NCBI GenBank assembly: GCA_964016885.1
Contig: OZ024746.1
Coordinates: forward strand, 81,158,001 to 81,222,000
DNA: 64,000 nt
Direction of reading: 5' to 3'
Origin: Eledone cirrhosa
Lineage: Eukaryota
Shown: positions 21,851-56,767 of the stretch, one piece after another
Position numbering within the stretch: position 1 is the first letter of the stretch
Layout: each line of letters opens with the position of its first letter
Program-made: the position numbers and the translations under genes
The notes under the pieces: generated by a model
The model's input: only the letters and a program-made list of their open reading frames with translations
Databases searched by the model: none
What the model was told of the DNA's origin: nothing

Positions 21851-22296
21851 ATAATAATAGAGAGGTAGTGTTTAAAAATAATATTTCAGTATTTGAACAC
21901 TAAATTAAGGTATATGTTTAAAAGGTGGCTGATTGATATACACACACACACATATATATAGAGAGAGATATATACATACATAGACACACAAACACACGCA
22001 CGCACACATACATACATGCATGCATCAAGGTAGAAAATAACTGTAACCACTTCAAATTAGCGGAGAAAAATGTGATAGACTCGTTGGTGTAATGATAGCA
22101 TATCAGACAGGCAAGTCTGAAGTTGTGGGTTCCAGTCCCACATGTGATAATGTCCATTTTTTTCTGTTTGGGGTTTATAATGAAAATTTTCTCAATATTC
22201 GATGAAGCCATTTCTATATTAAATTTGTTGTTTACACTCTACTAATGCATTGAGTACCTTACTTACTGTGGTTACCCCCGATTGAACCCCGGACTC

Positions 22297-28075: not shown

Positions 28076-28182
28076 GTATTTGCTTCAGAAGTACATATCC
28101 TAATATTGGAAAGATACAGAGAGGGTTAGCATGGCTCCTGTGCATGGATGACACGCACATTCGTGAAAGTTCTATATTTTTT
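28076..28182 (+). pseudogene. U6: U6 snRNA-like copy (probable pseudogene)
   Basis: Full-length similarity to U6: ACAGAGA box (28116-28122), AGC triad (28128-28130), GGATGACACGCA, terminal TATTTTT. About 17 differences from the vertebrate sequence by eye, including ISL changes (GGCTCCTGTGCATGG vs GGCCCCTGCGCAAGG). Confidence 0.9.
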
Positions 28183-28360: not shown

Positions 28361-31300
28361 TATTGTCCTTGTTATTGGTCTTGTTGTTGTTCTTGTTGTT
28401 GGTCTTGTTGTTGTTCTTGTTATTGTTCTTGTTATTGGTCTTGTTGTTGTCCTTGTTATTGGTCTTGTTGTTGTCCTTGTTATTGGTCTTGTTGTTGTTC
28501 TTGTTATTGTTCTTGTTATTGGTCTTGTTGTTGTCCTTGTTATTGGTCTTGTTGTTGTCCTTGTTGTTGTCCTTGTTGTTGTTCTTGTTATTGTTCTTGT
28601 TATTGGTCTTGTTGTTGTCCTTGTTATTGGTCTTGTTGTTGTCCTTGTTATTGGTCTTGTTGTTGTTCTTGTTATTGGTCTTGTTGTTGTCCTTGTTATT
28701 GGTCTTGTTGTTGTTCTTGTTATTGTTCTTGTTATTGGTCTTGTTGTTGTTCTTGTTATTGGTCTTGTTGTTGTCCTTGTTGTTGTCCTTGTTGTTGTTC
28801 TTGTTATTGTTCTTGTTATTGGTCTTGTTGTTGTTCTTGTTATTGGTCTTGTTGTTGTCCTTGTTATTGGTCTTGTTGTTGTTCTTGTTATTGTTCTTGT
28901 TATTGGTCTTGTTGTTGTCCTTGTTATTGGTCTTGTTGTTGTTCTTGTTATTGTTCTTGTTATTGGTCTTGTTGTTGTCCTTGTTATTGGTCTTGTTGTT
29001 GTCCTTGTTGTTGTCCTTGTTGTTGTTCTTGTTATTGTTCTTGTTATTGGTCTTGTTGTTGTCCTTGTTATTGGTCTTGTTGTTGTCCTTGTTATTGGTC
29101 TTGTTGTTGTTCTTGTTATTGGTCTTGTTGTTGTCCTTGTTATTGGTCTTGTTGTTGTTCTTGTTATTGGTCTTGTTGTTGTTCTTGTTATTGTTCTTGT
29201 TATTGGTCTTGTTGTTGTCCTTGTTATTGGTCTTGTTGTTGTCCTTGTTATTGGTCTTGTTGTTGTTCTTGTTATTGTTCTTGTTATTGGTCTTGTTGTT
29301 GTCCTTGTTATTGGTCTTGTTGTTGTCCTTGTTATTGGTCTTGTTGTTGTTCTTGTTATTGTTCTTGTTATTGGTCTTGTTGTTGTCCTTGTTATTGGTC
29401 TTGTTGTTGTCCTTGTTATTGGTCTTGTTGTTGTTCTTGTTATTGTTCTTGTTATTGGTCTTGTTGTTGTCCTTGTTGTTGTCCTTGTTATTGGTCTTGT
29501 TGTTGTTCTTGTTATTGTTCTTGTTATTGGTCTTGTTGTTGTCCTTGTTATTGGTCTTGTTGTTGTCCTTGTTATTGGTCTTGTTGTTGTTCTTGTTATT
29601 GTTCTTGTTATTGGTCTTGTTGTTGTCCTTGTTATTGGTTTTGTTGTTGTTCTTGTTATTGTTCTTGTTATTGGTCTTGTTGTTGTCCTTGTTATTGGTC
29701 TTGTTGTTGTCCTTGTTGTTGTCCTTGTTGTTGTTCTTGTTATTGTTCTTGTTATTGGTCTTGTTGTTGTTCTTGTTATTGGTCTTGTTGTTGTCCTTGT
29801 TATTGGTCTTGTTGTTGTTCTTGTTATTGTTCTTGTTATTGGTCTTGTTGTTGTCCTTGTTATTGGTCTTGTTGTTGTCCTTGTTGTTGTCCTTGTTGTT
29901 GTTCTTGTTATTGTTCTTGTTATTGGTCTTGTTGTTGTCCTTGTTATTGGTCTTGTTGTTGTCCTTGTTATTGGTCTTGTTGTTGTTCTTGTTATTGGTC
30001 TTGTTGTTGTCCTTGTTATTGGTCTTGTTGTTGTTCTTGTTATTGTTCTTGTTATTGGTCTTGTTGTTGTCCTTGTTATTGGTCTTGTTGTTGTCCTTGT
30101 TATTGGTCTTGTTGTTGTTCTTGTTATTGTTCTTGTTATTGGTCTTGTTGTTGTCCTTGTTATTGGTTTTGTTGTTGTTCTTGTTATTGTTCTTGTTATT
30201 GGTCTTGTTGTTGTCCTTGTTATTGGTCTTGTTGTTGTCCTTGTTGTTGTCCTTGTTGTTGTTCTTGTTATTGTTCTTGTTATTGGTCTTGTTGTTGTTC
30301 TTGTTATTGGTCTTGTTGTTGTCCTTGTTATTGGTCTTGTTGTTGTTCTTGTTATTGTTCTTGTTATTGGTCTTGTTGTTGTCCTTGTTATTGGTCTTGT
30401 TGTTGTCCTTGTTATTGGTCTTGTTGTTGTTCTTGTTATTGTTCTTGTTATTGGTCTTGTTGTTGTCCTTGTTATTGGTTTTGTTGTTGTTCTTGTTATT
30501 GTTCTTGTTATTGGTCTTGTTGTTGTCCTTGTTATTGGTCTTGTTGTTGTCCTTGTTATTGGTCTTGTTGTTGTCCTTGTTATTGGTCTTGTTGTTGTTC
30601 TTGTTATTGTTCTTGTTATTGTTCTTGTTATTGGTCTTGTTGTTGTCCTTGTTATTGGTCTTGTTGTTGTCCTTGTTATTGGTCTTGTTGTTGTTCTTGT
30701 TATTGTTCTTGTTATTGGTCTTGTTGTTGTCCTTGTTATTGGTCTTGTTGTTGTTCTTGTTATTGTTCTTGTTATTGGTCTTGTTGTTGTCCTTGTTATT
30801 GGTCTTGTTGTTGTCCTTGTTATTGGTCTTGTTGTTGTTCTTGTTATTGGTCTTGTTGTTGTCCTTGTTATTGGTCTTGTTGTTGTTCTTGTTATTGTTC
30901 TTGTTATTGGTCTTGTTGTTGTCCTTGTTATTGGTCTTGTTGTTGTCCTTGTTATTGGTCTTGTTGTTGTTCTTGTTATTGGTCTTGTTGTTGTTCTTGT
31001 TATTGTTCTTGTTATTGGTCTTGTTGTTGTCCTTGTTATTGGTCTTGTTGTTGTTCTTGTTATTGGTCTTGTTGTTGTTCTTGTTATTGGTCTTGTTATT
31101 GGTCTTGTTGTTGTTCTTGTTATTGGTCTTGTTATTGGTCTTGTTGTTGTTCTTGTTATTGGTCTTGTTGTTGTTCTTGTTATTGTTCTTGTTATTGGTC
31201 TTGTTATTGGTCTTGTTGTTGTTCTTGTTATTGGTCTTGTTGTTGTTCTTGTTATTGGTCTTGTTGTTGTTCTTGTTATTGGTCTTGTTGTTGTTCTTGT

Positions 31301-34300
31301 TATTGGTCTTGTTGTTGTTCTTGTTATTGGTCTTGTTGTTGTTCTTGTTATTGGTCTTGTTGTTGTTCTTGTTATTGGTCTTGTTGTTGTTCTTGTTATT
31401 GGTCTTGTTATTGGTCTTGTTGTTGTTCTTGTTATTGGTCTTGTTGTTGTTCTTGTTATTGGTCTTGTTGTTGTTCTTGTTATTGGTCTTGTTGTTGTTC
31501 TTGTTATTGGTCTTGTTATTGGTCTTGTTGTTGTTCTTGTTATTGGTCTTGTTGTTGTTCTTGTTATTGGTCTTGTTGTTGTTCTTGTTATTGGTCTTGT
31601 TGTTGTTCTTGTTATTGGTCTTGTTGTTGTCCTTGTTATTGGTCTTGTTATTGGTCTTGTTGTTGTCCTTGTTATTGGTCTTGTTGTTGTTCTTGTTATT
31701 GGTCTTGTTGTTGTTCTTGTTATTGGTCTTGTTGTTGTCCTTGTTATTGGTCTTGTTATTGGTCTTGTTGTTGTCCTTGTTATTGGTCTTGTTGTTGTTC
31801 TTGTTATTGGTCTTGTTGTTGTTCTTGTTATTGGTCTTGTTATTGGTCTTGTTGTTGTTCTTGTTATTGGTCTTGTTGTTGTTCTTGTTATTGGTCTTGT
31901 TGTTGTTCTTGTTATTGGTCTTGTTGTTGTTCTTGTTATTGGTCTTGTTATTGGTCTTGTTGTTGTTCTTGTTATTGGTCTTGTTATTGGTCTTGTTGTT
32001 GTCCTTGTTATTGGTCTTGTTGTTGTTCTTGTTATTGTTCTTGTTATTGGTCTTGTTGTTGTCCTTGTTATTGGTCTTGTTGTTGTCCTTGTTATTGGTC
32101 TTGTTGTTGTTCTTGTTATTGGTCTTGTTGTTGTTCTTGTTATTGTTCTTGTTATTGGTCTTGTTGTTGTCCTTGTTATTGGTCTTGTTGTTGTTCTTGT
32201 TATTGGTCTTGTTGTTGTTCTTGTTATTGGTCTTGTTATTGGTCTTGTTGTTGTTCTTGTTATTGGTCTTGTTGTTGTCCTTGTTATTGGTCTTGTTGTT
32301 GTCCTTGTTATTGGTCTTGTTGTTGTTCTTGTTATTGGTCTTGTTGTTGTTCTTGTTATTGTTCTTGTTATTGGTCTTGTTGTTGTCCTTGTTATTGGTC
32401 TTGTTGTTGTTCTTGTTATTGTTCTTGTTATTGGTCTTGTTGTTGTCCTTGTTATTGGTCTTGTTGTTGTTCTTGTTATTGGTCTTGTTGTTGTCCTTGT
32501 TATTGGTCTTGTTGTTGTCCTTGTTATTGGTCTTGTTGTTGTTCTTGTTATTGGTCTTGTTGTTGTTCTTGTTATTGTTCTTGTTATTGGTCTTGTTGTT
32601 GTCCTTGTTATTGGTCTTGTTGTTGTTCTTGTTATTGTTCTTGTTATTGGTCTTGTTGTTGTCCTTGTTATTGGTCTTGTTGTTGTCCTTGTTATTGGTC
32701 TTGTTGTTGTTCTTGTTATTGGTCTTGTTGTTGTCCTTGTTATTGGTCTTGTTGTTGTTCTTGTTATTGTTCTTGTTATTGGTCTTGTTGTTGTCCTTGT
32801 TATTGGTCTTGTTGTTGTTCTTGTTATTGTTCTTGTTATTGGTCTTGTTGTTGTCCTTGTTATTGGTCTTGTTGTTGTCCTTGTTATTGGTCTTGTTGTT
32901 GTTCTTGTTATTGTTCTTGTTATTGGTCTTGTTGTTGTCCTTGTTATTGGTCTTGTTGTTGTTCTTGTTATTGTTCTTGTTATTGGTCTTGTTGTTGTCC
33001 TTGTTATTGGTCTTGTTGTTGTCCTTGTTATTGGTCTTGTTGTTGTCCTTGTTATTGGTCTTGTTGTTGTCCTTGTTATTGGTCTTGTTGTTGTTCTTGT
33101 TATTGTTCTTGTTATTGTTCTTGTTATTGGTCTTGTTGTTGTCCTTGTTATTGGTCTTGTTGTTGTCCTTGTTATTGGTCTTGTTGTTGTTCTTGTTATT
33201 GGTCTTGTTGTTGTCCTTGTTATTGGTCTTGTTGTTGTTCTTGTTATTGTTCTTGTTATTGGTCTTGTTGTTGTTCTTGTTATTGTTCTTGTTATTGGTC
33301 TTGTTGTTGTTCTTGTTATTGGTCTTGTTGTTGGTCTTGTTGTTGTCCTTGTTATTGGTCTTGTTGTTGTCCTTGTTATTGGTCTTGTTGTTGTTCTTGT
33401 TATTGTTCTTGTTATTGGTCTTGTTGTTGTTCTTGTTATTGTTCTTGTTATTGGTCTTGTTGTTGTCCTTGTTATTGGTCTTGTTGTTGTCCTTGTTATT
33501 GGTCTTGTTGTTGTCCTTGTTATTGGTCTTGTTGTTGTCCTTGTTATTGGTCTTGTTGTTGTTCTTGTTATTGTTCTTGTTATTGGTCTTGTTGTTGTTC
33601 TTGTTATTGTTCTTGTTATTGTTCTTGTTATTGGTCTTGTTGTTGTCCTTGTTATTGGTCTTGTTGTTGTTCTTGTTATTGTTCTTGTTATTGTTCTTGT
33701 TGTTGGTCTTGTTGTTGTCCTTGTTATTGGTCTTGTTATTGTTCTTGTTATTGGTCTTGTTGTTGTCCTTGTTATTGGTCTTGTTGTTGTTCTTGTTATT
33801 GGTCTTGTTGTTGTTCTTGTTATTGGTCTTGTTGTTGTCCTTGTTATTGGTCTTGTTGTTGTTCTTGTTATTGGTCTTGTTGTTGTTCTTGTTATTGGTC
33901 TTGTTGTTGTCCTTGTTATTGGTCTTGTTATTGTTCTTGTTATTGGTCTTGTTGTTGTCCTTGTTATTGGTCTTGTTGTTGTCCTTGTTATTGGTCTTGT
34001 TGTTGTTCTTGTTATTGGTCTTGTTGTTGTCCTTGTTATTGGTCTTGTTGTTGTCCTTGTTATTGGTCTTGTTGTTGTTCTTGTTATTGGTCTTGTTGTT
34101 GTCCTTGTTATTGGTCTTGTTATTGTTCTTGTTATTGGTCTTGTTGTTGTCCTTGTTATTGGTCTTGTTGTTGTCCTTGTTATTGGTCTTGTTGTTGTTC
34201 TTGTTATTGGTCTTGTTGTTGTCCTTGTTATTGGTCTTGTTGTTGTCCTTGTTATTGGTCTTGTTGTTGTTCTTGTTATTGGTCTTGTTGTTGTCCTTGT

Positions 34301-37300
34301 TATTGGTCTTGTTATTGTTCTTGTTATTGGTCTTGTTGTTGTCCTTGTTATTGGTCTTGTTATTGTTCTTGTTATTGGTCTTGTTGTTGTCCTTGTTATT
34401 GGTCTTGTTGTTGTCCTTGTTATTGGTCTTGTTGTTGTTCTTGTTATTGGTCTTGTTGTTGTCCTTGTTATTGGTCTTGTTGTTGTCCTTGTTATTGGTC
34501 TTGTTGTTGTTCTTGTTATTGGTCTTGTTGTTGTCCTTGTTATTGGTCTTGTTATTGTTCTTGTTATTGGTCTTGTTGTTGTCCTTGTTATTGGTCTTGT
34601 TGTTGTCCTTGTTATTGGTCTTGTTATTGTTCTTGTTATTGGTCTTGTTGTTGTCCTTGTTATTGGTCTTGTTGTTGTCCTTGTTATTGGTCTTGTTGTT
34701 GTTCTTGTTATTGGTCTTGTTGTTGTCCTTGTTATTGGTCTTGTTATTGTTCTTGTTATTGGTCTTGCTGTTGTCCTTGTTATTGGTCTTGTTGTTGTCC
34801 TTGTTATTGGTCTTGTTGTTGTCCTTGTTATTGGTCTTGTTGTTGTCCTTGTTATTGGTCTTGTTGTTGTCCTTGTTATTGGTCTTGTTGTTGTCCTTGT
34901 TATTGGTCTTGTTGTTGTTCTTGTTATTGTTCTTGTTATTGGTCTTGTTGTTGTCCTTGTTGTTGTCCTTGTTATTGGTCTTGTTGTTGTCCTTGTTATT
35001 GGTCTTGTTGTTGTTCTTGTTATTGTTCTTGTTATTGTTCTTGTTATTGGTCTTGTTGTTGTCCTTGTTATTGGTCTTGTTGTTGTCCTTGTTGTTGTCC
35101 TTGTTATTGGTCTTGTTGTTGTCCTTGTTATTGGTCTTGTTGTTGTCCTTGTTATTGGTCTTGTTGTTGTTCTTGTTATTGGTCTTGTTGTTGTCCTTGT
35201 TATTGGTCTTGTTGTTGTTCTTGTTATTGTTCTTGTTATTGTTCTTGTTATTGGTCTTGTTGTTGTCCTTGTTATTGGTCTTGTTGTTGTTCTTGTTATT
35301 GTTCTTGTTATTGTTCTTGTTATTGGTCTTGTTGTTGTCCTTGTTATTGGTCTTGTTGTTGTTCTTGTTATTGTTCTTGTTATTGTTCTTGTTATTGGTC
35401 TTGTTGTTGTCCTTGTTATTGGTCTTGTTGTTGTCCTTGTTATTGGTCTTGTTGTTGTTCTTGTTATTGGTCTTGTTGTTGTCCTTGTTATTGGTCTTGT
35501 TGTTGTTCTTGTTATTGTTCTTGTTATTGGTCTTGTTGTTGTCCTTGTTATTGGTCTTGTTGTTGTCCTTGTTATTGGTCTTGTTGTTGTCCTTGTTATT
35601 GGTCTTGTTGTTGTTCTTGTTATTGTTCTTGTTATTGGTCTTGTTGTTGTCCTTGTTGTTGTCCTTGTTATTGGTCTTGTTGTTGTTCTTGTTATTGTTC
35701 TTGTTATTGGTCTTGTTGTTGTCCTTGTTATTGGTCTTGTTGTTGTCCTTGTTATTGTTCTTGTTATTGGTCTTGTTGTTGTCCTTGTTATTGGTCTTGT
35801 TGTTGTTCTTGTTATTGTCCTTGTTATTGGTCTTGTTGTTGTTCTTGTTATTGTTCTTGTTATTGGTCTTGTTGTTGTCCTTGTTATTGGTCTTGTTGTT
35901 GTCCTTGTTATTGGTCTTGTTGTTGTTCTTGTTATTGTCCTTGTTATTGGTCTTGTTGTTGTCCTTGTTATTGGTCTTGTTGTTGTTCTTGTTATTGTTC
36001 TTGTTATTGGTCTTGTTGTTGTCCTTGTTGTTGTCCTTGTTATTGGTCTTGTTGTTGTTCTTGTTATTGTTCTTGTTATTGGTCTTGTTGTTGTCCTTGT
36101 TATTGGTCTTGTTGTTGTCCTTGTTGTTGTCCTTGTTATTGGTCTTGTTGTTGTTCTTGTTATTGTTCTTGTTATTGGTCTTGTTGTTGTCCTTGTTATT
36201 GGTCTTGTTGTTGTTCTTGTTATTGGTCTTGTTGTTGTCCTTGTTATTGGTCTTGTTATTGTTCTTGTTATTGGTCTTGTTGTTGTCCTTGTTATTGGTC
36301 TTGTTGTTGTCCTTGTTGTTGTCCTTGTTATTGGTCTTGTTGTTGTTCTTGTTATTGTTCTTGTTATTGGTCTTGTTGTTGTCCTTGTTATTGGTCTTGT
36401 TGTTGTTCTTGTTATTGGTCTTGTTGTTGTCCTTGTTATTGGTCTTGTTATTGTTCTTGTTATTGGTCTTGTTGTTGTCCTTGTTATTGGTCTTGTTGTT
36501 GTCCTTGTTGTTGTCCTTGTTATTGGTCTTGTTGTTGTTCTTGTTATTGTTCTTGTTATTGGTCTTGTTGTTGTCCTTGTTATTGGTCTTGTTGTTGTCC
36601 TTGTTGTTGTCCTTGTTATTGGTCTTGTTGTTGTTCTTGTTATTGTTCTTGTTATTGGTCTTGTTGTTGTCCTTGTTATTGGTCTTGTTGTTGTTCTTGT
36701 TATTGGTCTTGTTGTTGTTCTTGTTATTGTTCTTGTTGTTGTTCTTGTTATTGGTCTTGTTGTTGTCCTTGTTATTGGTCTTGTTGTTGTCCTTGTTATT
36801 GGTCTTGTTGTTGTCCTTGTTATTGGTCTTGTTGTTGTCCTTGTTATTGGTCTTGTTGTTGTTCTTGTTATTGTTCTTGTTGTTGTTCTTGTTATTGGTC
36901 TTGTTGTTGTCCTTGTTATTGGTCTTGTTGTTGTCCTTGTTATTGGTCTTGTTGTTGTCCTTGTTATTGGTCTTGTTGTTGTTCTTGTTATTGTTCTTGT
37001 TGTTGTTCTTGTTATTGGTCTTGTTGTTGTCCTTGTTATTGGTCTTGTTGTTGTCCTTGTTATTGGTCTTGTTGTTGTCCTTGTTATTGGTCTTGTTGTT
37101 GTCCTTGTTATTGGTCTTGTTGTTGTCCTTGTTATTGTTCTTGTTGTTGTTCTTGTTATTGGTCTTGTTGTTGTTCTTGTTATTGGTCTTGTTGTTGTCC
37201 TTGTTATTGGTCTTGTTGTTGTCCTTGTTATTGGTCTTGTTGTTGTCCTTGTTATTGGTCTTGTTGTTGTTCTTGTTATTGTTCTTGTTGTTGTTCTTGT

Positions 37301-40285
37301 TATTGGTCTTGTTGTTGTCCTTGTTATTGGTCTTGTTGTTGTCCTTGTTATTGGTCTTGTTGTTGTCCTTGTTATTGGTCTTGTTGTTGTTCTTGTTATT
37401 GGTCTTGTTGTTGTCCTTGTTATTGGTCTTGTTGTTGTCCTTGTTATTGGTCTTGTTGTTGTCCTTGTTATTGGTCTTGTTGTTGTTCTTGTTATTGGTC
37501 TTGTTGTTGTCCTTGTTATTGGTCTTGTTGTTGTTCTTGTTATTGGTCTTGTTGTTGTCCTTGTTATTGGTCTTGTTGTTGTCCTTGTTGTTGTTCTTGT
37601 TATTGTTCTTGTTATTGGTCTTGTTGTTGTCCTTGTTATTGGTCTTGTTGTTGTTCTTGTTATTGTTCTTGTTATTGGTCTTGTTGTTGTCCTTGTTATT
37701 GGTCTTGTTGTTGTCCTTGTTATTGGTCTTGTTGTTGTTCTTGTTATTGTTCTTGTTATTGGTCTTGTTGTTGTCCTTGTTATTGGTCTTGTTGTTGTCC
37801 TTGTTATTGGTCTTGTTGTTGTTCTTGTTATTGTTCTTGTTATTGGTCTTGTTGTTGTCCTTGTTATTGGTCTTGTTGTTGTCCTTGTTATTGGTCTTGT
37901 TGTTGTTCTTGTTATTGTTCTTGTTATTGGTCTTGTTGTTGTCCTTGTTATTGGTCTTGTTGTTGTTCTTGTTATTGTTCTTGTTATTGGTCTTGTTGTT
38001 GTCCTTGTTATTGGTCTTGTTGTTGTCCTTGTTGTTGTCCTTGTTATTGGTCTTGTTGTTGTTCTTGTTATTGTTCTTGTTATTGGTCTTGTTGTTGTCC
38101 TTGTTATTGGTCTTGTTGTTGTCCTTGTTATTGGTCTTGTTGTTGTTCTTGTTATTGTTCTTGTTATTGGTCTTGTTGTTGTCCTTGTTATTGGTCTTGT
38201 TGTTGTCCTTGTTATTGGTCTTGTTGTTGTTCTTGTTATTGTTCTTGTTATTGGTCTTGTTGTTGTCCTTGTTATTGGTCTTGTTGTTGTTCTTGTTATT
38301 GTTCTTGTTATTGGTCTTGTTGTTGTCCTTGTTATTGGTCTTGTTGTTGTTCTTGTTATTGTTCTTGTTATTGGTCTTGTTGTTGTTCTTGTTATTGGTC
38401 TTGTTGTTGTCCTTGTTATTGGTCTTGTTGTTGTTCTTGTTATTGTTCTTGTTATTGGTCTTGTTGTTGTCCTTGTTATTGGTCTTGTTGTTGTCCTTGT
38501 TATTGGTCTTGTTGTTGTTCTTGTTATTGTTCTTGTTATTGGTCTTGTTGTTGTCCTTGTTATTGGTCTTGTTGTTGTCCTTGTTGTTGTCCTTGTTATT
38601 GGTCTTGTTGTTGTTCTTGTTATTGTTCTTGTTATTGGTCTTGTTGTTGTCCTTGTTATTGGTCTTGTTGTTGTTCTTGTTATTGTTCTTGTTATTGGTC
38701 TTGTTGTTGTCCTTGTTATTGGTCTTGTTGTTGTTCTTGTTATTGTTCTTGTTATTGGTCTTGTTGTTGTCCTTGTTATTGGTCTTGTTGTTGTCCTTGT
38801 TGTTGGTCTTGTTGTTGTCCTTGTTGTTGTCCTTGTTATTGGTCTTGTTGTTGTTCTTGTTATTGTTCTTGTTATTGGTCTTGTTGTTGTCCTTGTTATT
38901 GGTCTTGTTGTTGTCCTTGTTGTTGTCCTTGTTATTGGTCTTGTTGTTGTTCTTGTTATTGTTCTTGTTATTGGTCTTGTTGTTGTCCTTGTTATTGGAC
39001 TTGTTGTTGTCCTTGTTGTTGGTCTTGTTGTTGGTCTTGTTGTTGTTCTTGTTATTGGTCTTATTGTTGTTCTTGTTGTTGGTCTTGTTGTTGTTCTTGT
39101 TGTTGTCCTTGTTATTGGACTTGTTGTTGTCCTTGTTATTGGACTTGTTGTTGTCCTTGTTGTTGGTCTTGTTATTGGTCTTGTTGTTGTTCTTGTTATT
39201 GGTCTTATTGTTGTTCTTGTTGTTGGTCTTGTTGTTGTTCTTGTTGTTGTCCTTGTTATTGGACTTGTTGTTGTCCTTGTTATTGGACTTGTTGTTGTCC
39301 TTGTTGTTGGTCTTGTTATTGGTCTTGTTGTTGTTCTTGTTATTGGTCTTGTTGTTGTCCTTGTTATTGGTCTTGTTGTTGTTCTTGTTGTTGGTCTTGT
39401 TGTTGTTCTTGTTGTTGTCCTTGTTATTGGTCTTGTTGTTGTCCTTGTTATTGGTCTTATTGTTGTTCTTGTTGTTGGTCTTGTTGTTGTTCTTGTTGTT
39501 GTCCTTGTTATTGGTCTTGTTGTTGTCCTTGTTATTGGTCTTATTGTTGTTCTTGTTGTTGGTCTTGTTGTTGTTCTTGTTGTTGGTCTTGTTGTTGTTC
39601 TTGTTGTTGTCCTTGTTATTGGTCTTGTTGTTGTCCTTGTTATTGGTCTTATTGTTGTTCTTGTTGTTGGTCTTGTTGTTGTTCTTGTTGTTGTCCTTGT
39701 TATTGGACTTGTTGTTGTCCTTGTTGTTGGTCTTGTTATTGGTCTTGTTGTTGTTCTTGTTATTGGTCTTGTTGTTGTCCTTGTTATTGGTCTTGTTGTT
39801 GTCCTTGTTGTTGTCCTTGTTATTGGACTTGTTGTTGTCCTTGTTGTTGGTCTTGTTATTGGTCTTGTTGTTGTTCTTGTTATTGGTCTTATTGTTGTTC
39901 TTGTTGTTGGTCTTGTTGTTGTTCTTGTTGTTGGTCTTGTTGTTGTTCTTGTTATTGGTCTTATTGTTGTTCTTGTTGTTGGTCTTGTTGTTGTTCTTGT
40001 TGTTGGTCTTGTTGTTGTTCTTGTTATTGGTCTTATTGTTGTTCTTGTTGTTGGTCTTGTTGTTGTTCTTGTTGTTGGTCTTGTTGTTGTTCTTGTTATT
40101 GGTCTTATTGTTGTTCTTGTTGTTGGTCTTGTTGTTGTTCTTGTTGTTGGTCTTGTTGTTGTTCTTGTTATTGGTCTTATTGTTGTTCTTGTTGTTGGTC
40201 TTGTTGTTGTCCTTGTTATTGGTCTTGTTGTTGTTCTTGTTGTTGGTCTTGTTGTTGTCCTTGTTATTGGTCTTGTTGTTGTTCT
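28361..40285. repeat. ~11.9 kb 12-bp satellite (variants CTTGTTATTGGT / CTTGTTGTTGTC / CTTGTTGTTGTT / CTTGTTATTGTT; loose 24-bp alternation)
   Basis: Every 60-nt line begins in the same register, so roughly 990 units are in phase with no visible indel. Confidence 0.97.
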
Positions 40286-40336
40286 TTCCAATGACGATGT
40301 CGGCAATGGTATTGCTGGTTGTGGCGAAGACACTCT

Positions 40337-42500
40337 ATGTGTGTGTGTGTGTGGAGGGTGTGTGTGTGTGGAGGGTGTGTGTATGTGGAGGGTGTGTGCG
40401 TGGAGGGTGTGTGTATGTAGAGGGTGTGTGTATGTAGAGGGTGTGTGTATGTGGAGGGTGTGTGTATGTAGAGGGTGTGTGTATGTGGAGGGTATGTGTA
40501 TGTAGAGGGTGTGTGTGTGTGGAGGGTGTGTGTATGTAGAGGGTGTGTGTATGTAGAGGGTGTGTGTATGTGGAGGGTGTGTGTATGTAGAGGGTGTGTG
40601 TATGTGGAGGGTGTGTGTATGTAGAGGGTGTGTGTATGTGTGCGCGCGTGTGTGTATGTGGAGAGTGTGTGTATGTGGAGGGTGTGTGTATGTGGAGGGT
40701 GTGTGTGTGTGGAGGGTGTGTGTATGTGGAGGGTGTGTGTATGTAGAGGGTGTGTGTGTGTGGAGGGTGTGTGTATGTAGAGGGTGTGTGTATGTGGAGG
40801 GTGTGTGTATGTAGAGGCTTTGTGTGTGTGGAGGGTGTGTGTATGTGGAGGGTGTGTGTATGTGGAGGGTGTGTGTATGTGTGTGCGCGTGTGTGTATGT
40901 GGAGAGTGTGTGTATGTGTGCGCGCGTGTGTGTATGTGGAGAGTGTGTGTATGTGGAGGGTGTGTGTATGTAGAGGGTGTGTGTATGTGGAGGGTGTGTG
41001 TATGTAGAGGCTTTGTGTGTGTGGAGGGTGTCTGTATGTGGAGGGTGTGTGTATGTGGAGGGCGTGTGTATGTGTGTGCGCGTGTGTGTATGTGGAGGGT
41101 GTGTGTATGTGTGCGCGCGTGTGTGTATGTGGAGAGTGTGTGTATGTGGAGGGTGTGTGTATGTGGAGGTGTGTGTATGTGGAGGGTGTGTGTATGTAGA
41201 CGCTTTGTGTGTGTGGAGGGTGTGTGTATGTGGAGGGTGTGTGTATGTGGAGGGTGTGTGTATGTGTGTGCGCGTGTGTGTATGTGGAGGGTGTGTGTAT
41301 GTGTGTGTGTGTGTATGTGGAGGGTGTGTGTATGTGGAGAGTGTGTGTATGTGTGTGTGTGTGCATGTAGAGGGTGTGTGTATGTGGAGAGTGTGTGTAT
41401 GTGGAGGGTGTGTGTATGTGGAGGGTGTGTGTATGTAGAGGGTGTGTGTATGTGGAGGGTGTGTGTATGTGTGCGCGCGTGTGTGTATGTGGAGAGTGTG
41501 TGTATGTGGAGGGTGTGTGTATGTGGAGGGTGTGTGTATGTGGAAGGTGTGTGTATGTGTGCGCGCGTGTGTGTATGTGGAGGGTGTGTGTATGTGGAGG
41601 GTGTGTGTATGTGTGTATGTGTGTGTGTGTGTATGTGGAGGGTGTGTGTATGTGGAGGGTGTGTGTATGTGGAGGGTGTGTGTATGTGGAGGGTGTGTGT
41701 ATGTGGAGGGTGTGTGTATGTGGAGGGTGTGTGTATGTGTATGTGTGTGTATGTGGAGGGTGTGTGTATGTGGAGAGTGTGTGTATGTGTGTGTGTGTGT
41801 ATGTGGAGGGTGTGTGTATGTGGAGGGTGTGTGTATGTGGAGGGTGTGTGTATGTGGAGGGTGTGTGTATGTGTGTGTGTGTGTATGTGGAGGGTGTGTG
41901 TATGTGGAGGGTGTGTGTATGTGGAGGGTGTGTGTATGTAGAGGGTGTGTGTATGTGGAGGGTGTGTGTATGTGTGCGCGCGTGTGTGTATGTGGAGAGT
42001 GTGTGTATGTGGAGGGTGTGTGTATGTGGAGGGTGTGTGTATGTGGAGGGTGTGTGTGTGTGGAGGGTGTGTGTATGTGGAGGGTGTGTGTATGTGGAGG
42101 GTGTGTGTGTGTGGAGGGTGTGTGTATGTGTGTGTGTGTGTGTATGTGGAGGGTGTGTGTATGTGGAGAGTGTGTGTATGTGGAGGGTGTGTGTGTGTGG
42201 AGGGTGTGTGTATGTAGAGGGGGTGTGTATGTGGAGGGTGTGTGTATGTGGAGGGTGTGTGTATGTGGAGGGTGTGTGTATGTGGAGGGTGTGTGTATGT
42301 GGAGGGTGTGTGTATGTGTGTGTGTATGTATGTGGAGGGTGTGTGTATGTGGAGAGTGTGTGTATGTGTGTGTGTGTGTATGTGGAGGGTGTGTGTATGT
42401 GGAGAGTGTGTGTATGTGGAGAGTGTGTGTATGTGTGTGTGTGTGTATGTGGAGGGTGTGTGTATGTGGAGAGTGTGTGTATGTGTGTGTGTATGTGTGT
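40337..42500. repeat. 17-bp minisatellite (GGTGTGTGTATGTGGAG)n derived from (GT)n
   Basis: Period 17, seen directly and from the 17-aa (51-nt) translated periodicity. Confidence 0.95.
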
Positions 42501-47057: not shown

Positions 47058-47403
47058 GTGTGTGTGTATAGAACAATGTGTGTGTGTGTATAGAACAATG
47101 TGTGTGTGTATATAGAACAATGTGTGTGTGTGTATAGAACAATGTGTGTGTGTATATAGAACAATGTGTGTGTGTGTATAGAACAATGTGTGTGTATAGA
47201 ACAATGTGTGTGTGTGTATAGAACAATATGTGTGTGTATATAGAACAATGTGTGTGTGTGTATAGAACAATGTGTGTGTGTATATAGAACAATGTGTGTG
47301 TGTGTATAGAACAATGTGTGTGTGTATATAGAACAATGTGTGTGTGTATATAGAACAATGTGTGTGTGTGTGTAGAACAATGTGTGTGTGTGTGTAGAAC
47401 AAT
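47058..47403. repeat. ~20-bp minisatellite (TGTGTGTGTGTATAGAACAA)n
   Basis: About 17 units, seen directly. Confidence 0.9.
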
Positions 47404-47541
47404 GAAAACAAGACTGAAGTCAGAGGTAGGTAGTTTAATTAGTTCATGGTGTTACTGTCGCTTCAGAGGCTTGTAACCACTACCATACTACTCGATATAT
47501 CGATCTTCCAGGATCAATCGACCATCTGAAACGATTGTAAA

Positions 47542-47543
47542 AT

Positions 47544-47577
<34 letters not shown>

Positions 47578-47581
47578 ATAT

Positions 47582-47646
<65 letters not shown>

Positions 47647-47729
47647 CATATATATACATACATACATACATATATTTATACATATATATATACATATATA
47701 TATATACATATATATATATATATGTATAT

Positions 47730-47764
<35 letters not shown>

Positions 47765-47765
47765 C

Positions 47766-47812
<47 letters not shown>

Positions 47813-47906
47813 CATACATGTATATATATACATACATATATATATATATACATATATATATATACATACATGTATATATATACATATATATATATATATA
47901 TTTATT

Positions 47907-47992
<86 letters not shown>

Positions 47993-48136
47993 TATATATG
48001 CGCTTCCTGAAGATTTCATCTGAATGAAACAGTACTAGTCCTGTAGAAGCTCCTTCTATAAAATATAAAAAGATTTTACTCTGCAATGTATTGAGTACCT
48101 TACTTACTGTGGTTATCCCCGACTCAACCCGGGATC

Positions 48137-48180
<44 letters not shown>

Positions 48181-48195
48181 CATACATATATACAC

Positions 48196-48228
<33 letters not shown>

Positions 48229-48244
48229 CATATATATATACACA

Positions 48245-48278
<34 letters not shown>

Positions 48279-48339
48279 CACATATATATATACACATATA
48301 TATACATATATACATATACACATATATATATATACACAC

Positions 48340-48374
<35 letters not shown>

Positions 48375-49148
48375 CACACACATATATATATATATACACA
48401 TATATATATATACACATATATACACGTATACATATATATATACACATATATATACATATATATATACACATATACATATATATATATACATATATATATA
48501 TACATATATACATATATATACACATATACATATATATATACATATATATATATATATACATATATACATATATACATATATATACACATATACATATATA
48601 TATATACATATATATATACATATATACATATATACATATATATACACATATACATATATATATATACATATATATATATATACATATATACATATATATA
48701 CACATACATATATATACATATATATATATATATATACATATATACATATATGTACACATATACATATATATATATACATATATACATATATATACACATA
48801 TACATATATACATATATGTACACATATATACACATATACTTATATATATATACATATATATATACATATATACATATATATACACATATACATATATATA
48901 TATACATATATATATACATATATACATATATACATATATATACACATATACATATATATATACATATATATACACATATACATATATAAACATATACATA
49001 TATACATATATACATATATGTACACATATACATATATATATATACATATATACATATATATACACATATACATATATACATATATGTACACATATACATA
49101 TATATATATACATATATACATATATATACACATATACATATATATATG

Positions 49149-49182
<34 letters not shown>

Positions 49183-49209
49183 TATATACATATATACATA
49201 TATATACAC

Positions 49210-49246
<37 letters not shown>

Positions 49247-49347
49247 CATATATACATATATACATATATATACACATATACATATATATACACATATACA
49301 TATATATATACATATATACATATATATACACATATACATATAAATAT

Positions 49348-49416
<69 letters not shown>

Positions 49417-49470
49417 TACATATATATACACATATACATATATATATACATATATATATATATATGTGTG

Positions 49471-49500
<30 letters not shown>
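47542..49500. repeat. Long degenerate (TA)n/(TACA)n microsatellite field (interrupted at 48001-48137)
   Basis: Direct inspection. Confidence 0.95.
48002..48050 (+). ncRNA. Type-I hammerhead ribozyme (Penelope-associated type)
   Basis: gcttc-CTGAAGA-t ttca tc tgaa t-GAAA-cag tactagtc ctg-TA-gaagc. Intact core, perfect stems I and III, predicted GUA cleavage after 48045. Confidence 0.75.
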
Positions 49501-49502
<2 letters not shown>

Positions 49503-49626
49503 CATACATGCACACATATATATATGCACGTATGGATTCACCGAACATTTATTATAATGCTCGGTGTGTTTGTAAACAAACATCCCGTATTAAGCCGTAG
49601 TGTCTAGCAACCACCGTTGCTCATTT

Positions 49627-49713
49627 TTTCAACACTGACAAAGGAACGCTGTACTAGTTTCAAGCTTGTTAGCTATCGTCAGCAACGTATACCTTCCTGC
49701 CAGATTGTTGAAC
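49627..49713 (-). ncRNA. Type-I hammerhead ribozyme (inverted unit of 422-bp repeat)
   Basis: Reverse complement of 49920-50006; predicted cleavage between 49652 and 49651. Confidence 0.8.
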
Positions 49714-49870
49714 GTATATACTTACCTTATGCATATCAACGGCTGAGTAGCCCAATTTGCATATCGAGTGGGTTAATCGGCCGGGTGCACCGAAAACGAT
49801 AAACGGAAAAAATGTTTCATATTTTTCCGTTTATCGTTTTCGGTGCACCCGGCCGATTAACCCACTCGAT

Positions 49871-49878
49871 ATGCAAAT
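49871..49878 (+). promoter_or_regulatory. Octamer motif ATGCAAAT (one upstream of each ribozyme in the 422-bp repeat)
   Basis: Perfect octamer, conserved with the 466-bp family. Function is inferred only. Confidence 0.4.
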
Positions 49879-49919
49879 TGGGCTACTCAGCCGTTGATAT
49901 GCATAAGGTAAGTATATAC

Positions 49920-50006
49920 GTTCAACAATCTGGCAGGAAGGTATACGTTGCTGACGATAGCTAACAAGCTTGAAACTAGTACAGCGTTCCTTTGTCAGTG
50001 TTGAAC
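49920..50006 (+). ncRNA. Type-I hammerhead ribozyme, minimal palindromic stem III
   Basis: acgttg-CTGACGA-t agc taacaa gct t-GAAA-ctag-TA-cagcgt. Extended stem I gttcaac/gttgaac, ctggc/gtcag, gaagg/ccttt. GUA cleavage after 49981. Confidence 0.85.
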
Positions 50007-50341
50007 AAATGAGCAACGGTGGTTGCTAGACACTACGGCTTAATACGGGATGTTTGTTTACAAATACACCGAGCATTATAATAAATGTTCGGTGAATCCA
50101 TACGTGCATATATATATGTGTGCATGTATGTATATATATATATACATACTACTGTACGTCGGTATACATATATGTATGTACGTGTACATACTTATATTTA
50201 AGTAACAGCCGTACTAAGAGTGGGAAATGAAATATCGTTTCATTTTTTCCGTTTATCGTTTTCGGTGCACCCGGCCGATTAACCCACTCGATATGCAAAT
50301 TGGGCTACTCAGCCGTTGATATGCATAAGGTAAGTATATAC

Positions 50342-50428
50342 GTTCAACAATCAGGCAGGAAGGTATACGTTGCTGACGATAGCTAACAAGCTTGAAACTA
50401 GTACAGCGTTCCTTTGTCAGTGTTGAAC
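50342..50428 (+). ncRNA. Type-I hammerhead ribozyme (second tandem 422-bp unit)
   Basis: Same core as 49920-50006; cleavage after 50403. Confidence 0.85.
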
Positions 50429-50690
50429 AAATGAGCAACGGTGGTTGTTAGACACTACGGCTTAATACGGGATGTTTGTTTACAAACACACCGAGCATTA
50501 TAATAAATGTTCGGTGAATCCATACGTGCATATATATATATGTGTGCATGTATGTATATATATATATACATACTACTGTACGTCGGTATACATATATGTA
50601 TGTACGTGTACATACTTATATTTAAGTAACAGCCGTACTAAGAGTGGGAAATGAAATATCGTTTCATTTTTTCCGTTTATATATATACAC

Positions 50691-50777
<87 letters not shown>

Positions 50778-50825
50778 CATACATATATATATGTATATAT
50801 ATATCTATATATATATATATATACA

Positions 50826-51263
50826 TAACTTTGAAATGTTTTGGCCAGTATTGGCCCAGGTCATGTCTAACTTAATAGCACCACCTGGCGAAGTCTTTCA
50901 ATTCAGGATTTGGGCACCATGGCCCATTCGAGAAGAGAATTACTGTTTGCGGAGACATATCCGGGTGTGGGTGGTTTGTCCGGGATTACTTGGAGGAATT
51001 TGTCCAAAGACTTCTTGAACTTTGTGTGGTCAGTTTCTATTTTGACGTGTCCTGGTGTGATGTTGAAGAGAGCAGGGCCAATTGAGGTGAAATAATTGTG
51101 CTGTACTGCTGTTATGAGTTGCGATTTAGATTTTTGTATGGGACGGATAGCACGGGGCCCAAGCCTTGGGTGTATCTTGAAGGCGATGCCAACATCATTT
51201 GGGCAGTGATGATGGAACATTTTCCACATCATGCAGATAATATAACGCTCACGGCGACGTTGG
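50826..51263 (-). mobile_element. CR1/L2-group LINE 3' fragment embedded in (TA)n
   Basis: Open frame [46 protein letters not shown] typical of CR1-group RT C-termini, plus a short 3' UTR. Confidence 0.8.
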
Positions 51264-54522: not shown

Positions 54523-54563
<41 letters not shown>

Positions 54564-54861
54564 CACCGTATGGCATAAATTCAGGCTGTTCAGTTTGTTT
54601 ACAGACGAACAAAGCGACGTTAGCGCCGCTAAACTGATACGTGCATATATGTATGTGTACCTGTATGCATATGTATGTATATGTGTATATATATATATAT
54701 ATGTGCATGCTACTGTACGTCTGTATACATATATGTATGTACGTATACATGCATACTTACATTTAAGTAAGTGCCATACTAAGAGTGAGAAATGAAATTT
54801 CGTTTTCATTTTGTTTCAATTTATCGTTTTCGGTATGCCTGACCGATTTAACTCACTCAAT

Positions 54862-54869
54862 ATGCAAAT
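54862..54869 (+). promoter_or_regulatory. Octamer ATGCAAAT (repeated at 55328, 55794, 56260)
   Basis: Perfect octamer ~50 nt upstream of the ribozyme stem in each unit. Function is inferred. Confidence 0.4.
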
Positions 54870-54918
54870 TAGGCTGCTCAGCCGTTAATTTTCATAAGGA
54901 AAGTATATACTTTCGAAC

Positions 54919-55005
54919 GTTCAACTATCTGGCAGATGGGTAAACGGTGCTGATGATAGCTAACAAGCTTGAAACTAGTACATCGTTCCTGTGTCAGTGT
55001 TGAAC
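54919..55005 (+). ncRNA. Type-I hammerhead ribozyme, unit 1
   Basis: aacggtg-CTGATGA-t agc taacaa gct t-GAAA-ctag-TA-catcgtt. Extended stem I gttcaac/gttgaac and ctggca/tgtcag. GUA cleavage after 54980. Confidence 0.88.
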
Positions 55006-55384
55006 AAAAAGGTGACGTGGTTGCCTTAACACCGTATGGCATAAATTCAGGCTGTTCAGTTTGTTTACAAACGAACAAAGCGACGTTAGCGCCGCTAAAC
55101 TGATACGTGCATATATGTATGTGTACCTGTATGCATATGTATGTATATGTGTATATATATATATATATGTGCATGCTACTGTACGTCTGTATACATATAT
55201 GTATGTACGTATACATGCATACTTACATTTAAGTAAGTGCCATACTAAGAGTGAGAAATGAAATTTCGTTTTCATTTTGTTTCAATTTATCGTTTTCGGT
55301 ATGCCTGACCGATTTAACTCACTCAATATGCAAATTAGGCTGCTCAGCCGTTAATTTTCATAAGGAAAGTATATACTTTCGAAC

Positions 55385-55471
55385 GTTCAACTATCTGGCA
55401 GATGGGTAAACGGTGCTGATGATAGCTAACAAGCTTGAAACTAGTACATCGTTCCTGTGTCAGTGTTGAAC
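55385..55471 (+). ncRNA. Type-I hammerhead ribozyme, unit 2
   Basis: Identical to unit 1; cleavage after 55446. Confidence 0.88.
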
Positions 55472-55850
55472 AAAAAGGTGACGTGGTTGCCTTAACACCG
55501 TATGGCATAAATTCAGGCTGTTCAGTTTGTTTACAAACGAACAAAGCGACGTTAGCGCCGCTAAACTGATACGTGCATATATGTATGTGTACCTGTATGC
55601 ATATGTATGTATATGTGTATATATATATATATATGTGCATGCTACTGTACGTCTGTATACATATATGTATGTACGTATACTTGCATACTTACATTTAAGT
55701 AAGTGCCATACTAAGAGTGAGAAATGAAATTTCGTTTTCATTTTGTTTCAATTTATCGTTTTCGGTATGCCTGACCGATTTAACTCACTCAATATGCAAA
55801 TTAGGCTGCTCAGCCGTTAATTTTCATAAGGAAAGTATATACTTTCGAAC

Positions 55851-55937
55851 GTTCAACTATCTGGCAGATGGGTAAACGGTGCTGATGATAGCTAACAAGC
55901 TTGAAACTAGTACATCGTTCCTGTGTCAGTGTTGAAC
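55851..55937 (+). ncRNA. Type-I hammerhead ribozyme, unit 3
   Basis: Identical; cleavage after 55912. Confidence 0.88.
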
Positions 55938-56316
55938 AAAAAGGTGACGTGGTTGCCTTAACACCGTATGGCATAAATTCAGGCTGTTCAGTTTGTTTAC
56001 AAACGAACAAAGCGACGTTAGCGCCGCTAAACTGATACGTGCATATATGTATGTGTACCTGTATGCATATGTATGTATATGTGTATATATATATATATAT
56101 GTGCATGCTACTGTACGTCTGTATACATATATGTATGTACGTATACATGCATACTTACATTTAAGTAAGTGCCATACTAAGAGTGAGAAATGAAATTTCG
56201 TTTTCATTTTGTTTCAATTTATCGTTTTCGGTATGCCTGACCGATTTAACTCACTCAATATGCAAATTAGGCTGCTCAGCCGTTAATTTTCATAAGGAAA
56301 GTATATACTTTCGAAC

Positions 56317-56403
56317 GTTCAACTATCTGGCAGATGGGTAAACGGTGCTGATGATAGCTAACAAGCTTGAAACTAGTACATCGTTCCTGTGTCAGTGTTG
56401 AAC
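56317..56403 (+). ncRNA. Type-I hammerhead ribozyme, unit 4
   Basis: Identical; cleavage after 56378. Confidence 0.88.
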
Positions 56404-56682
56404 AAAAAGGTGACGTGGTTGCCTTAACACCGTATGGCATAAATTCAGGCTGTTCAGTTTGTTTACAAACGAACAAAGCGACGTTAGCGCCGCTAAACTG
56501 ATACGTGCATATATGTATGTGTACCTGTATGCATATGTATGTATATGTGTATATATATATATATATGTGCATGCTACTGTACGTCTGTATACATATATGT
56601 ATGTACGTATACATGCATACTTACATTTAAGTAAGTGCCATACTAAGAGTGAGAAATGAAATTTCGTTTTCATTTTGTTTCA

Positions 56683-56767
<85 letters not shown>

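Follow-up and report, generated by a model that had tools for sequence, protein, structure and literature searches.

Back-to-back retrozyme arms in the genome of Eledone cirrhosa: a young insertion of likely Penelope type

The window analyzed here, a 64,000-nt stretch of the Eledone cirrhosa genome, contains a young copy of a non-LTR retrozyme whose arms lie back-to-back, and this arrangement likely arose in a single insertion event in which a Penelope-type enzyme primed DNA synthesis at both target strands. Our confidence for this particular locus is lowered because its left arm stops at about unit position 331 in a TA run and because its junction is symmetric near a hairpin. The locus is ordinary for its family, and back-to-back arms are the commonest arrangement in the sample, not the special feature for which an earlier note on this DNA had taken them.

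Two 323-bp arms (49489-49811 and 49822-50144) form a palindrome with its axis at i + j = 99633 and its centre at 49816/49817; they flank 10 unpaired nucleotides and differ at only two positions, 49627/50006 and 49568/50065, and the mirror symmetry ends at the edge of the element (Table 1). The earlier note had described a palindrome with arms of about 320 bp at this centre and a hammerhead on the - strand opposite + strand units; both were recovered, with three matching type I motifs. Its + strand units with their predicted cuts were likewise borne out, but they do not form the plain dimer of that description: beyond unit 2 the array runs on for about 19 nt into a third unit, up to 50680, giving a right arm of 2.05 tandem units. 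The right arm terminates at the tailed site of the family, and the left arm has its 3' end within the TA run of the unit, where it falls about 50 nt short of the customary untailed end. No trace of the missing 3' portion was detected within 47400-49495, which rules out a long TA expansion concealing the rest of the left arm. All differences among the three copies are private, with one substitution in the left arm, one substitution and one insertion in unit 1, and two substitutions and a 2-nt indel in unit 2. This pattern points to one recent template for the three copies and argues against a read artefact. The units are 422 to 424 nt long with a GC content of 0.382 and have no open frame of 90 amino acids apart from microsatellite read-throughs at the edges; no ORF with reverse transcriptase (RT) and GIY-YIG domains was found in the frames of the units.

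Table 1. Features of the retrozyme locus and of the sister array, in window coordinates
Feature	Position	Strand	Remarks
Compound TA/CA microsatellite, left flank	47542..49488	.	About 2 kb; putative target
Inverted (left) arm	49489..49814	-	Covers unit positions 4 to about 331 (0.77 unit)
Type I hammerhead motif with extended stem, left arm	49627..49713	-	Predicted cut after GTA 49654-49652
Head-to-head junction	49812..49821	.	10-nt unpaired centre; 1-nt microhomology G 49814; 1-nt insertion 49821
Retrozyme unit 1	49815..50237	+	423 nt, counting the 1-nt insertion at 49821
Type I hammerhead motif, unit 1	49920..50006	+	Core from 49951; predicted cut after 49981
Retrozyme unit 2	50238..50661	+	424 nt; reference for unit positions (numbered from 50238)
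Type I hammerhead motif, unit 2	50342..50428	+	Core from 50373; predicted cut after 50403
59-nt tail	50622..50680	+	Segment between the fixed untailed end (unit position 384) and the fixed tailed end (next unit, position 19)
TA microsatellite, right flank	50681..50827	.	Putative target
Sister retrozyme array	54560..56688	+	4.6 copies of a 466-bp unit, four hammerhead motifs

A descriptor of the type I hammerhead found seven motifs in the window, three at the locus and four in the sister array, and none in a reversed-sequence control. The motif is composed of the conserved core, a 6-bp inner helix I, a 4-bp helix II over a U-U mismatch, and a helix III of 1 bp with a palindromic loop; GTA precedes both + strand cut sites, whose predicted spacing is 422 nt. 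Among 53 distinct motif sequences from 73 loci, the six inner helix I pairs are kept in 47 to 52 sequences and the helix II pairs in 50 to 53, with one wobble position of helix I reading TG, GT, AT or CG; the helix III pair is present in all 53 but is dictated by the search pattern. The monomer is predicted to fold stably (z = -7.1), although fold stability by itself is not cleavage. Rfam returned no hammerhead at its gathering threshold and none among the 150 listed of 241 weak matches; these weak matches are microRNA models on hairpins and microsatellites and do not identify the ribozyme. Hence, the assignment to a retrozyme hammerhead is based on motif and fold rather than on Rfam, and cleavage is predicted.

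In the 3.0-Gb genome, exact matches to a 30-mer from the unit number 3,473 (1,784 plus 1,689), and those to the hammerhead core, common to sister families, number 23,741 (12,184 plus 11,557); control sequences gave none in either search. A hammerhead in each unit, tandem units of 422 to 424 nt, the non-coding sequence and the dispersed high copy number all agree with the retrozyme identity given in the earlier note. The survey of other genomic copies for 5' inversions, also proposed there, covered 17 stretches taken from the best DNA matches and a position-ordered set from one contig (C1), the latter comprising the first 41 clusters less one, L034, which the best-match set already contained. 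Within the position-ordered set, 22 of 40 loci are head-to-head and 18 have a single arm, a fraction that may be inflated since choosing loci by an exact 30-mer favours longer insertions. In two of the 22 the inverted arm is as short as 14 and 18 nt, compared to a maximum of 9 nt in a random control. The head-to-head architecture with fixed ends repeats on several contigs.

Two 3' ends are fixed in this family, and most arms stop at one or the other: unit position 384 (untailed) and, with a spacing of 59 nt, position 19 of the following unit (tailed). Beyond either end the arms usually enter (TA)n. Exact patterns for the two ends matched the genome 1,517 and 3,426 times, respectively, with differing specificities, so that their ratio is no measure of relative frequency. 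Of 26 tailed and 24 untailed ends, 21 and 19, respectively, lead into an alternating purine/pyrimidine run of at least 8 nt; in such TA-run targets a target-site duplication is unreadable. We tabulated 35 head-to-head junctions (25 with two standard ends, 8 with one non-standard end and 2 cut off), omitting L034c as a duplicate of L034b as well as convergent neighbours across TA runs, and merging arm pieces broken by internal deletions or TA expansions (L035, L042, L057 and L058). Where both ends are standard, the pair is mixed, with a tail on one arm and none on the other, in 22 of 25 loci (p = 8e-5 for a null of 0.5); the exceptions are tail/tail in L058 and L067 and a tail at neither end in L083. 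The pairing recurs in lists of ends made independently of the inspected loci. In C1:0-97 Mb (100 tailed and 43 untailed ends), all 10 divergent pairs within 6 kb are mixed, against 42% expected (p = 1.7e-4); four of them overlap the 35-junction set, and a further exception, the untailed/untailed pair L165, sits further along. The hammerhead-core list gave nine further divergent pairs, all of which were fetched: the eight with two standard ends are all mixed, five of them from the sister family, and the ninth, L174, has a non-standard end. Fixed ends, one-tail pairing and TA targets across the family strengthen the Penelope-type integration signature that the earlier note had read from a single locus. 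At the studied locus itself the tail is on the right arm.

What kind of template gave rise to these arms? The 5' truncation points are uniform along the unit (Kolmogorov-Smirnov p = 0.55), and only 2 of 70 5' ends fall near the ribozyme cut, compared to 1.8 expected; without a pile-up at the cut site, linear cleaved monomers as the only template were rejected. Because any arm of more than one unit runs through the ribozyme site, its template would have been circular, a multimer that escaped cleavage, or a series of monomers bridged by template jumps, and a circular template would fit the sequences. Multimers were rejected as proof of rolling-circle copying, since L050 and L069 show variants spreading within one arm. 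In 18 of 21 comparable loci, divergence between the two arms is lower than their divergence from the median other locus (at the studied locus, 0.9% divergence between arms versus a median of 3.4% to other loci), and locus-private variants are common to both arms in 6 of 23 loci, including L070, where two private variants occur in all nine units of both arms. This sharing would fit one template RNA or conversion between arms. The arm-specific or alternating unit variants of L050, L055 and L069 suggest that arrays also grow after insertion or derive from dimer templates. The A-B-A-B alternation in L055 (2343-4273) and L069 (1-2897) could reflect a dimer template or a duplicated two-unit block.

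In the dual-priming event that we favour, a Penelope-type RT with its endonuclease would nick both target strands in a TA microsatellite, and each 3'-OH would prime reverse transcription on retrozyme RNA, one at each of two start sites. Each cDNA would halt at a random point, and the two truncated ends would then be joined via short microhomology or filler; among the 35 junctions, microhomology of 1 to 16 nt is seen in 18, filler in 14, and a blunt joint in 3. At the studied locus, the left arm may have been primed at the internal UA run of the unit, or its last 50 nt may have been lost between two TA runs, and later tandem growth of arrays would be an additional process. A purified Penelope-like protein, for which a dimer is predicted, is reported to cut both strands and to extend them, and its two RNA start sites bracket the tail (PMC11167929). 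In that study the choice of start site did not differ between strands, which by itself does not yield the anti-correlation of tails, and inverted copies are not discussed in the main text of that paper; elsewhere, the tail has been ascribed to endonuclease resolution (PMC8557442). A bolder version, which we put forward only tentatively and hold to be doubtful as it stands, is that the palindrome with one tailed and one untailed end would be the default Penelope product, made by a dimeric enzyme that is bound to one circular RNA, primes both strands at the two start sites 59 nt apart and rolls round the circle from each. If true, retrozymes would record Penelope transposition in thousands of short, young copies.

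Foldback, or self-priming, is an unlikely origin for the studied locus but the rival that survives best. Here, a cDNA starting from the right flank would turn back near the small hairpin of the unit and copy 326 nt of itself, and in a last step it would be connected to the left side of the target, either through annealing of TA repeats or following cleavage by the endonuclease. It predicts all three features of the locus that count against dual priming: the left end is non-standard, in a TA run; the left arm is contained in the right arm (unit 1); and the junction links unit positions 4 and 424, symmetric within 4 nt, in the region of the natural hairpin. Zero-offset junctions at internal palindromes also occur in L050, L065, L069, L164 and L169, and inversions at palindromic junctions have been ascribed to self-priming (PMC3846280). 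However, annealing of two same-sense cDNAs would predict symmetric joints at palindromes too, and the fixed outer end would require a second step. In the family as a whole, the offset exceeds 10 nt at 30 of 35 junctions; the 5 that are symmetric within 10 nt represent a modest enrichment (p = 0.028), three of them at internal palindromes or a TA run. In 9 of 22 mixed loci the arms are not nested in either direction (L057 being borderline), although a later central deletion could blur this count. With these non-nested arms and mostly asymmetric junctions, foldback is not the general route. The foldback invoked in the earlier note may thus apply to the studied locus, but for the family it is unsupported on both counts and by the fixed outer ends of both sides.

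L1 elements produce 5' inversions by twin priming, which yields an inverted 5' segment in one event, with microhomology at the junction. An L1-style event on one multimeric retrozyme RNA, in which the second target end anneals to an internal UA run upstream of the first cDNA, differs from dual priming only in the placing of the second primer, and we regard it as improbable. The left arm does end in a UA run able to pair with (TA)n, about 90 nt before the start of the right arm, and a few loci have abutting ends (364/366 in L075, 19/20 in L051 and 384/377 in L076). Most loci, however, have arms that duplicate rather than abut each other, the uniform 5' ends do not fit, there is no poly(A) tail as in L1, and the two outer ends, fixed in most loci, are left unexplained. 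Rearrangement of a plain tandem after insertion, through inverted duplication by replication foldback or repair, is very improbable: TA-rich flanks are unstable and the arrays L050, L055 and L069 were altered after insertion, but such changes do not account for fixed outer ends, tail pairing, a frequency of about half of the loci, or a mirror that halts at the element's edge. Least credible, judging from the assembly, is an assembly or foldback-read artefact; palindromes and microsatellites are hard to assemble (PMC8557442), but the same architecture with fixed ends is found on several contigs, and the earlier note's argument from substitutions holds, since the arms differ at 2 of 323 positions and at one of them the left arm agrees with unit 2, not unit 1.

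Autonomous Penelope-like elements of the same genome show a comparable pairing. A GIY-YIG search gave 10,595 candidates, 150 of which were scored, and Pfam analysis of 13 long frames identified RT plus GIY-YIG in eight (E <= 0.001), RT only in two and GIY-YIG only in three. Long Penelope-like frames include L108 3809-6622, L109 2488-5019 and L110 1775-5062, with 938, 844 and 1,096 codons, respectively. The C termini of the autonomous frames bear a CX2-5CxxC linker, a feature of Neptune and Nematis (PMC8557442). Downstream of the ORF, autonomous copies contain hammerhead-like motifs, and they terminate in TA runs. The tail is on one arm only in seven of eight head-to-head autonomous loci from four families, the eighth (L119) having none, and two more autonomous loci (L126 and L153) carry a one-arm tail. 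No pLTR or 3'-end similarity to the retrozyme was found in 40 GIY-YIG loci and 30 further loci of one family, a small sample in which apparent matches were separate retrozyme copies or chance words of 12 to 13 nt, and the retrozyme has no sequence link to any autonomous family sampled. The last 7 to 9 letters of its tailed end recur in L123 (a 9-mer near the 3' end, about 130 nt past the hammerhead-like motif) and at the minus arm end of L125, which may be a lead to a partner or may be due to chance.

Retrozymes, Penelope inversions and tails are each known already. Like the metazoan non-LTR retrozymes of two earlier papers (PMC7229834; 10.64898/2026.07.22.740005), the units are non-coding tandems of 150 to 450 bp with a GC content below 50% and one type I hammerhead per unit, and there are thousands of dispersed monomers and multimers. 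The U-U mismatch at the base of helix II is shared with axolotl HHR_Amex2 as described. The retrozymes in these two papers are head-to-tail tandems, whereas here inverted pairs with fixed ends are commonest; word searches of the main texts of PMC7229834 and 10.64898/2026.07.22.740005 found no "inverted" or "head-to-head" arrangement, nor a "tail" in that of the latter. We found no description of inverted, tail-paired retrozyme insertions in the mostly open-access literature searched. In Schistosoma, opposite-strand hammerheads 100 to 700 bp apart had already been noticed, but these are minimal motifs (PMC4209133).

The endonuclease-bearing Penelope-like elements Penelope/Poseidon, Neptune, Nematis and Naiad have an inverted 5'-truncated copy at the 5' end, partial tandems, a tail that is often confined to one end, insertion into AT-rich or (TA)n sequence and microhomology junctions, all as seen here (PMC8557442, PMC3846280, PMC11167929). 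The retrozyme differs from them in having no ORF, a tail of 59 rather than 30 to 40 nt, a full type I hammerhead instead of the minimal pLTR form, and arms that can both be multimers of the 0.42-kb unit. Non-autonomous Chlamys elements such as MRC1 are likewise non-coding and moved by Penelope-like enzymes, but these derivatives have 3' sequence in common with their partners, and hammerheads are absent from most Chlamys elements, unlike the retrozyme (PMC8557442). The case that Penelope-like elements mobilize animal retrozymes has been built on their co-occurrence and on pLTR similarity, with life-cycle evidence called limited by the authors; a Penelope origin of animal retrozymes has been proposed (10.64898/2026.07.22.740005), and the origin of tandem and inverted Penelope structures is termed undefined in PMC8557442. 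The insertion scars themselves now match such mobilization, and the one-tailed/one-untailed pairing ties two start sites defined in vitro to the inverted structure and provides a substrate of 0.4 kb on which this link can be tested. Many near-perfect palindromes of this type may also be present in the genome, and hairpin RNA is conceivable if they are read through. A read-through transcript of the studied locus would form a 323-bp hairpin in which the unit 1 ribozyme is paired, with that of unit 2 left free.

The sister array is a single arm between TA runs that ends at the equivalent tailed site and is 99.9% identical to its own unit. It shares 86% identity over aligned columns with the 422-bp family, in keeping with the sister relation proposed previously, and the helix I wobble pair is swapped between the two. 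Immediately beyond the right flank, 50828-51260 (-) is a 3' repeat fragment with copies at 94 to 98% identity in L170, L049, L116 and L033. It contains a frame without a Pfam match, which we take to resemble a LINE-like C terminus. The TA run of this repeat abuts the retrozyme end both here and in L033, suggesting that the retrozyme may have inserted into the microsatellite tail of the repeat. The youngest insertions, L032, L033 and the studied locus (left flank), adjoin 2-kb compound TA/CA runs. Other hammerhead repeats were seen at L149 90-1330, L098 25 and L120 2358, among them a tandem that repeats every 310 bp and a motif whose helix III is longer. The octamer ATGCAAAT is present at 50293-50300 and at equivalent positions of both sister families, without excess conservation (columns 57-64, 98.7% versus 97.9% overall); newt satellite 2 has an snRNA-type promoter (PMC2220036). 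Elsewhere in the window, a 12-kb array of a 24-bp unit (28363-40286) and a 2-kb array of a 17-bp unit (40341-42485) show strong strand skew, and Rfam matched a U6-like copy with several substitutions at 28076-28182 and, weakly, a tRNA-like sequence at 22078-22149.
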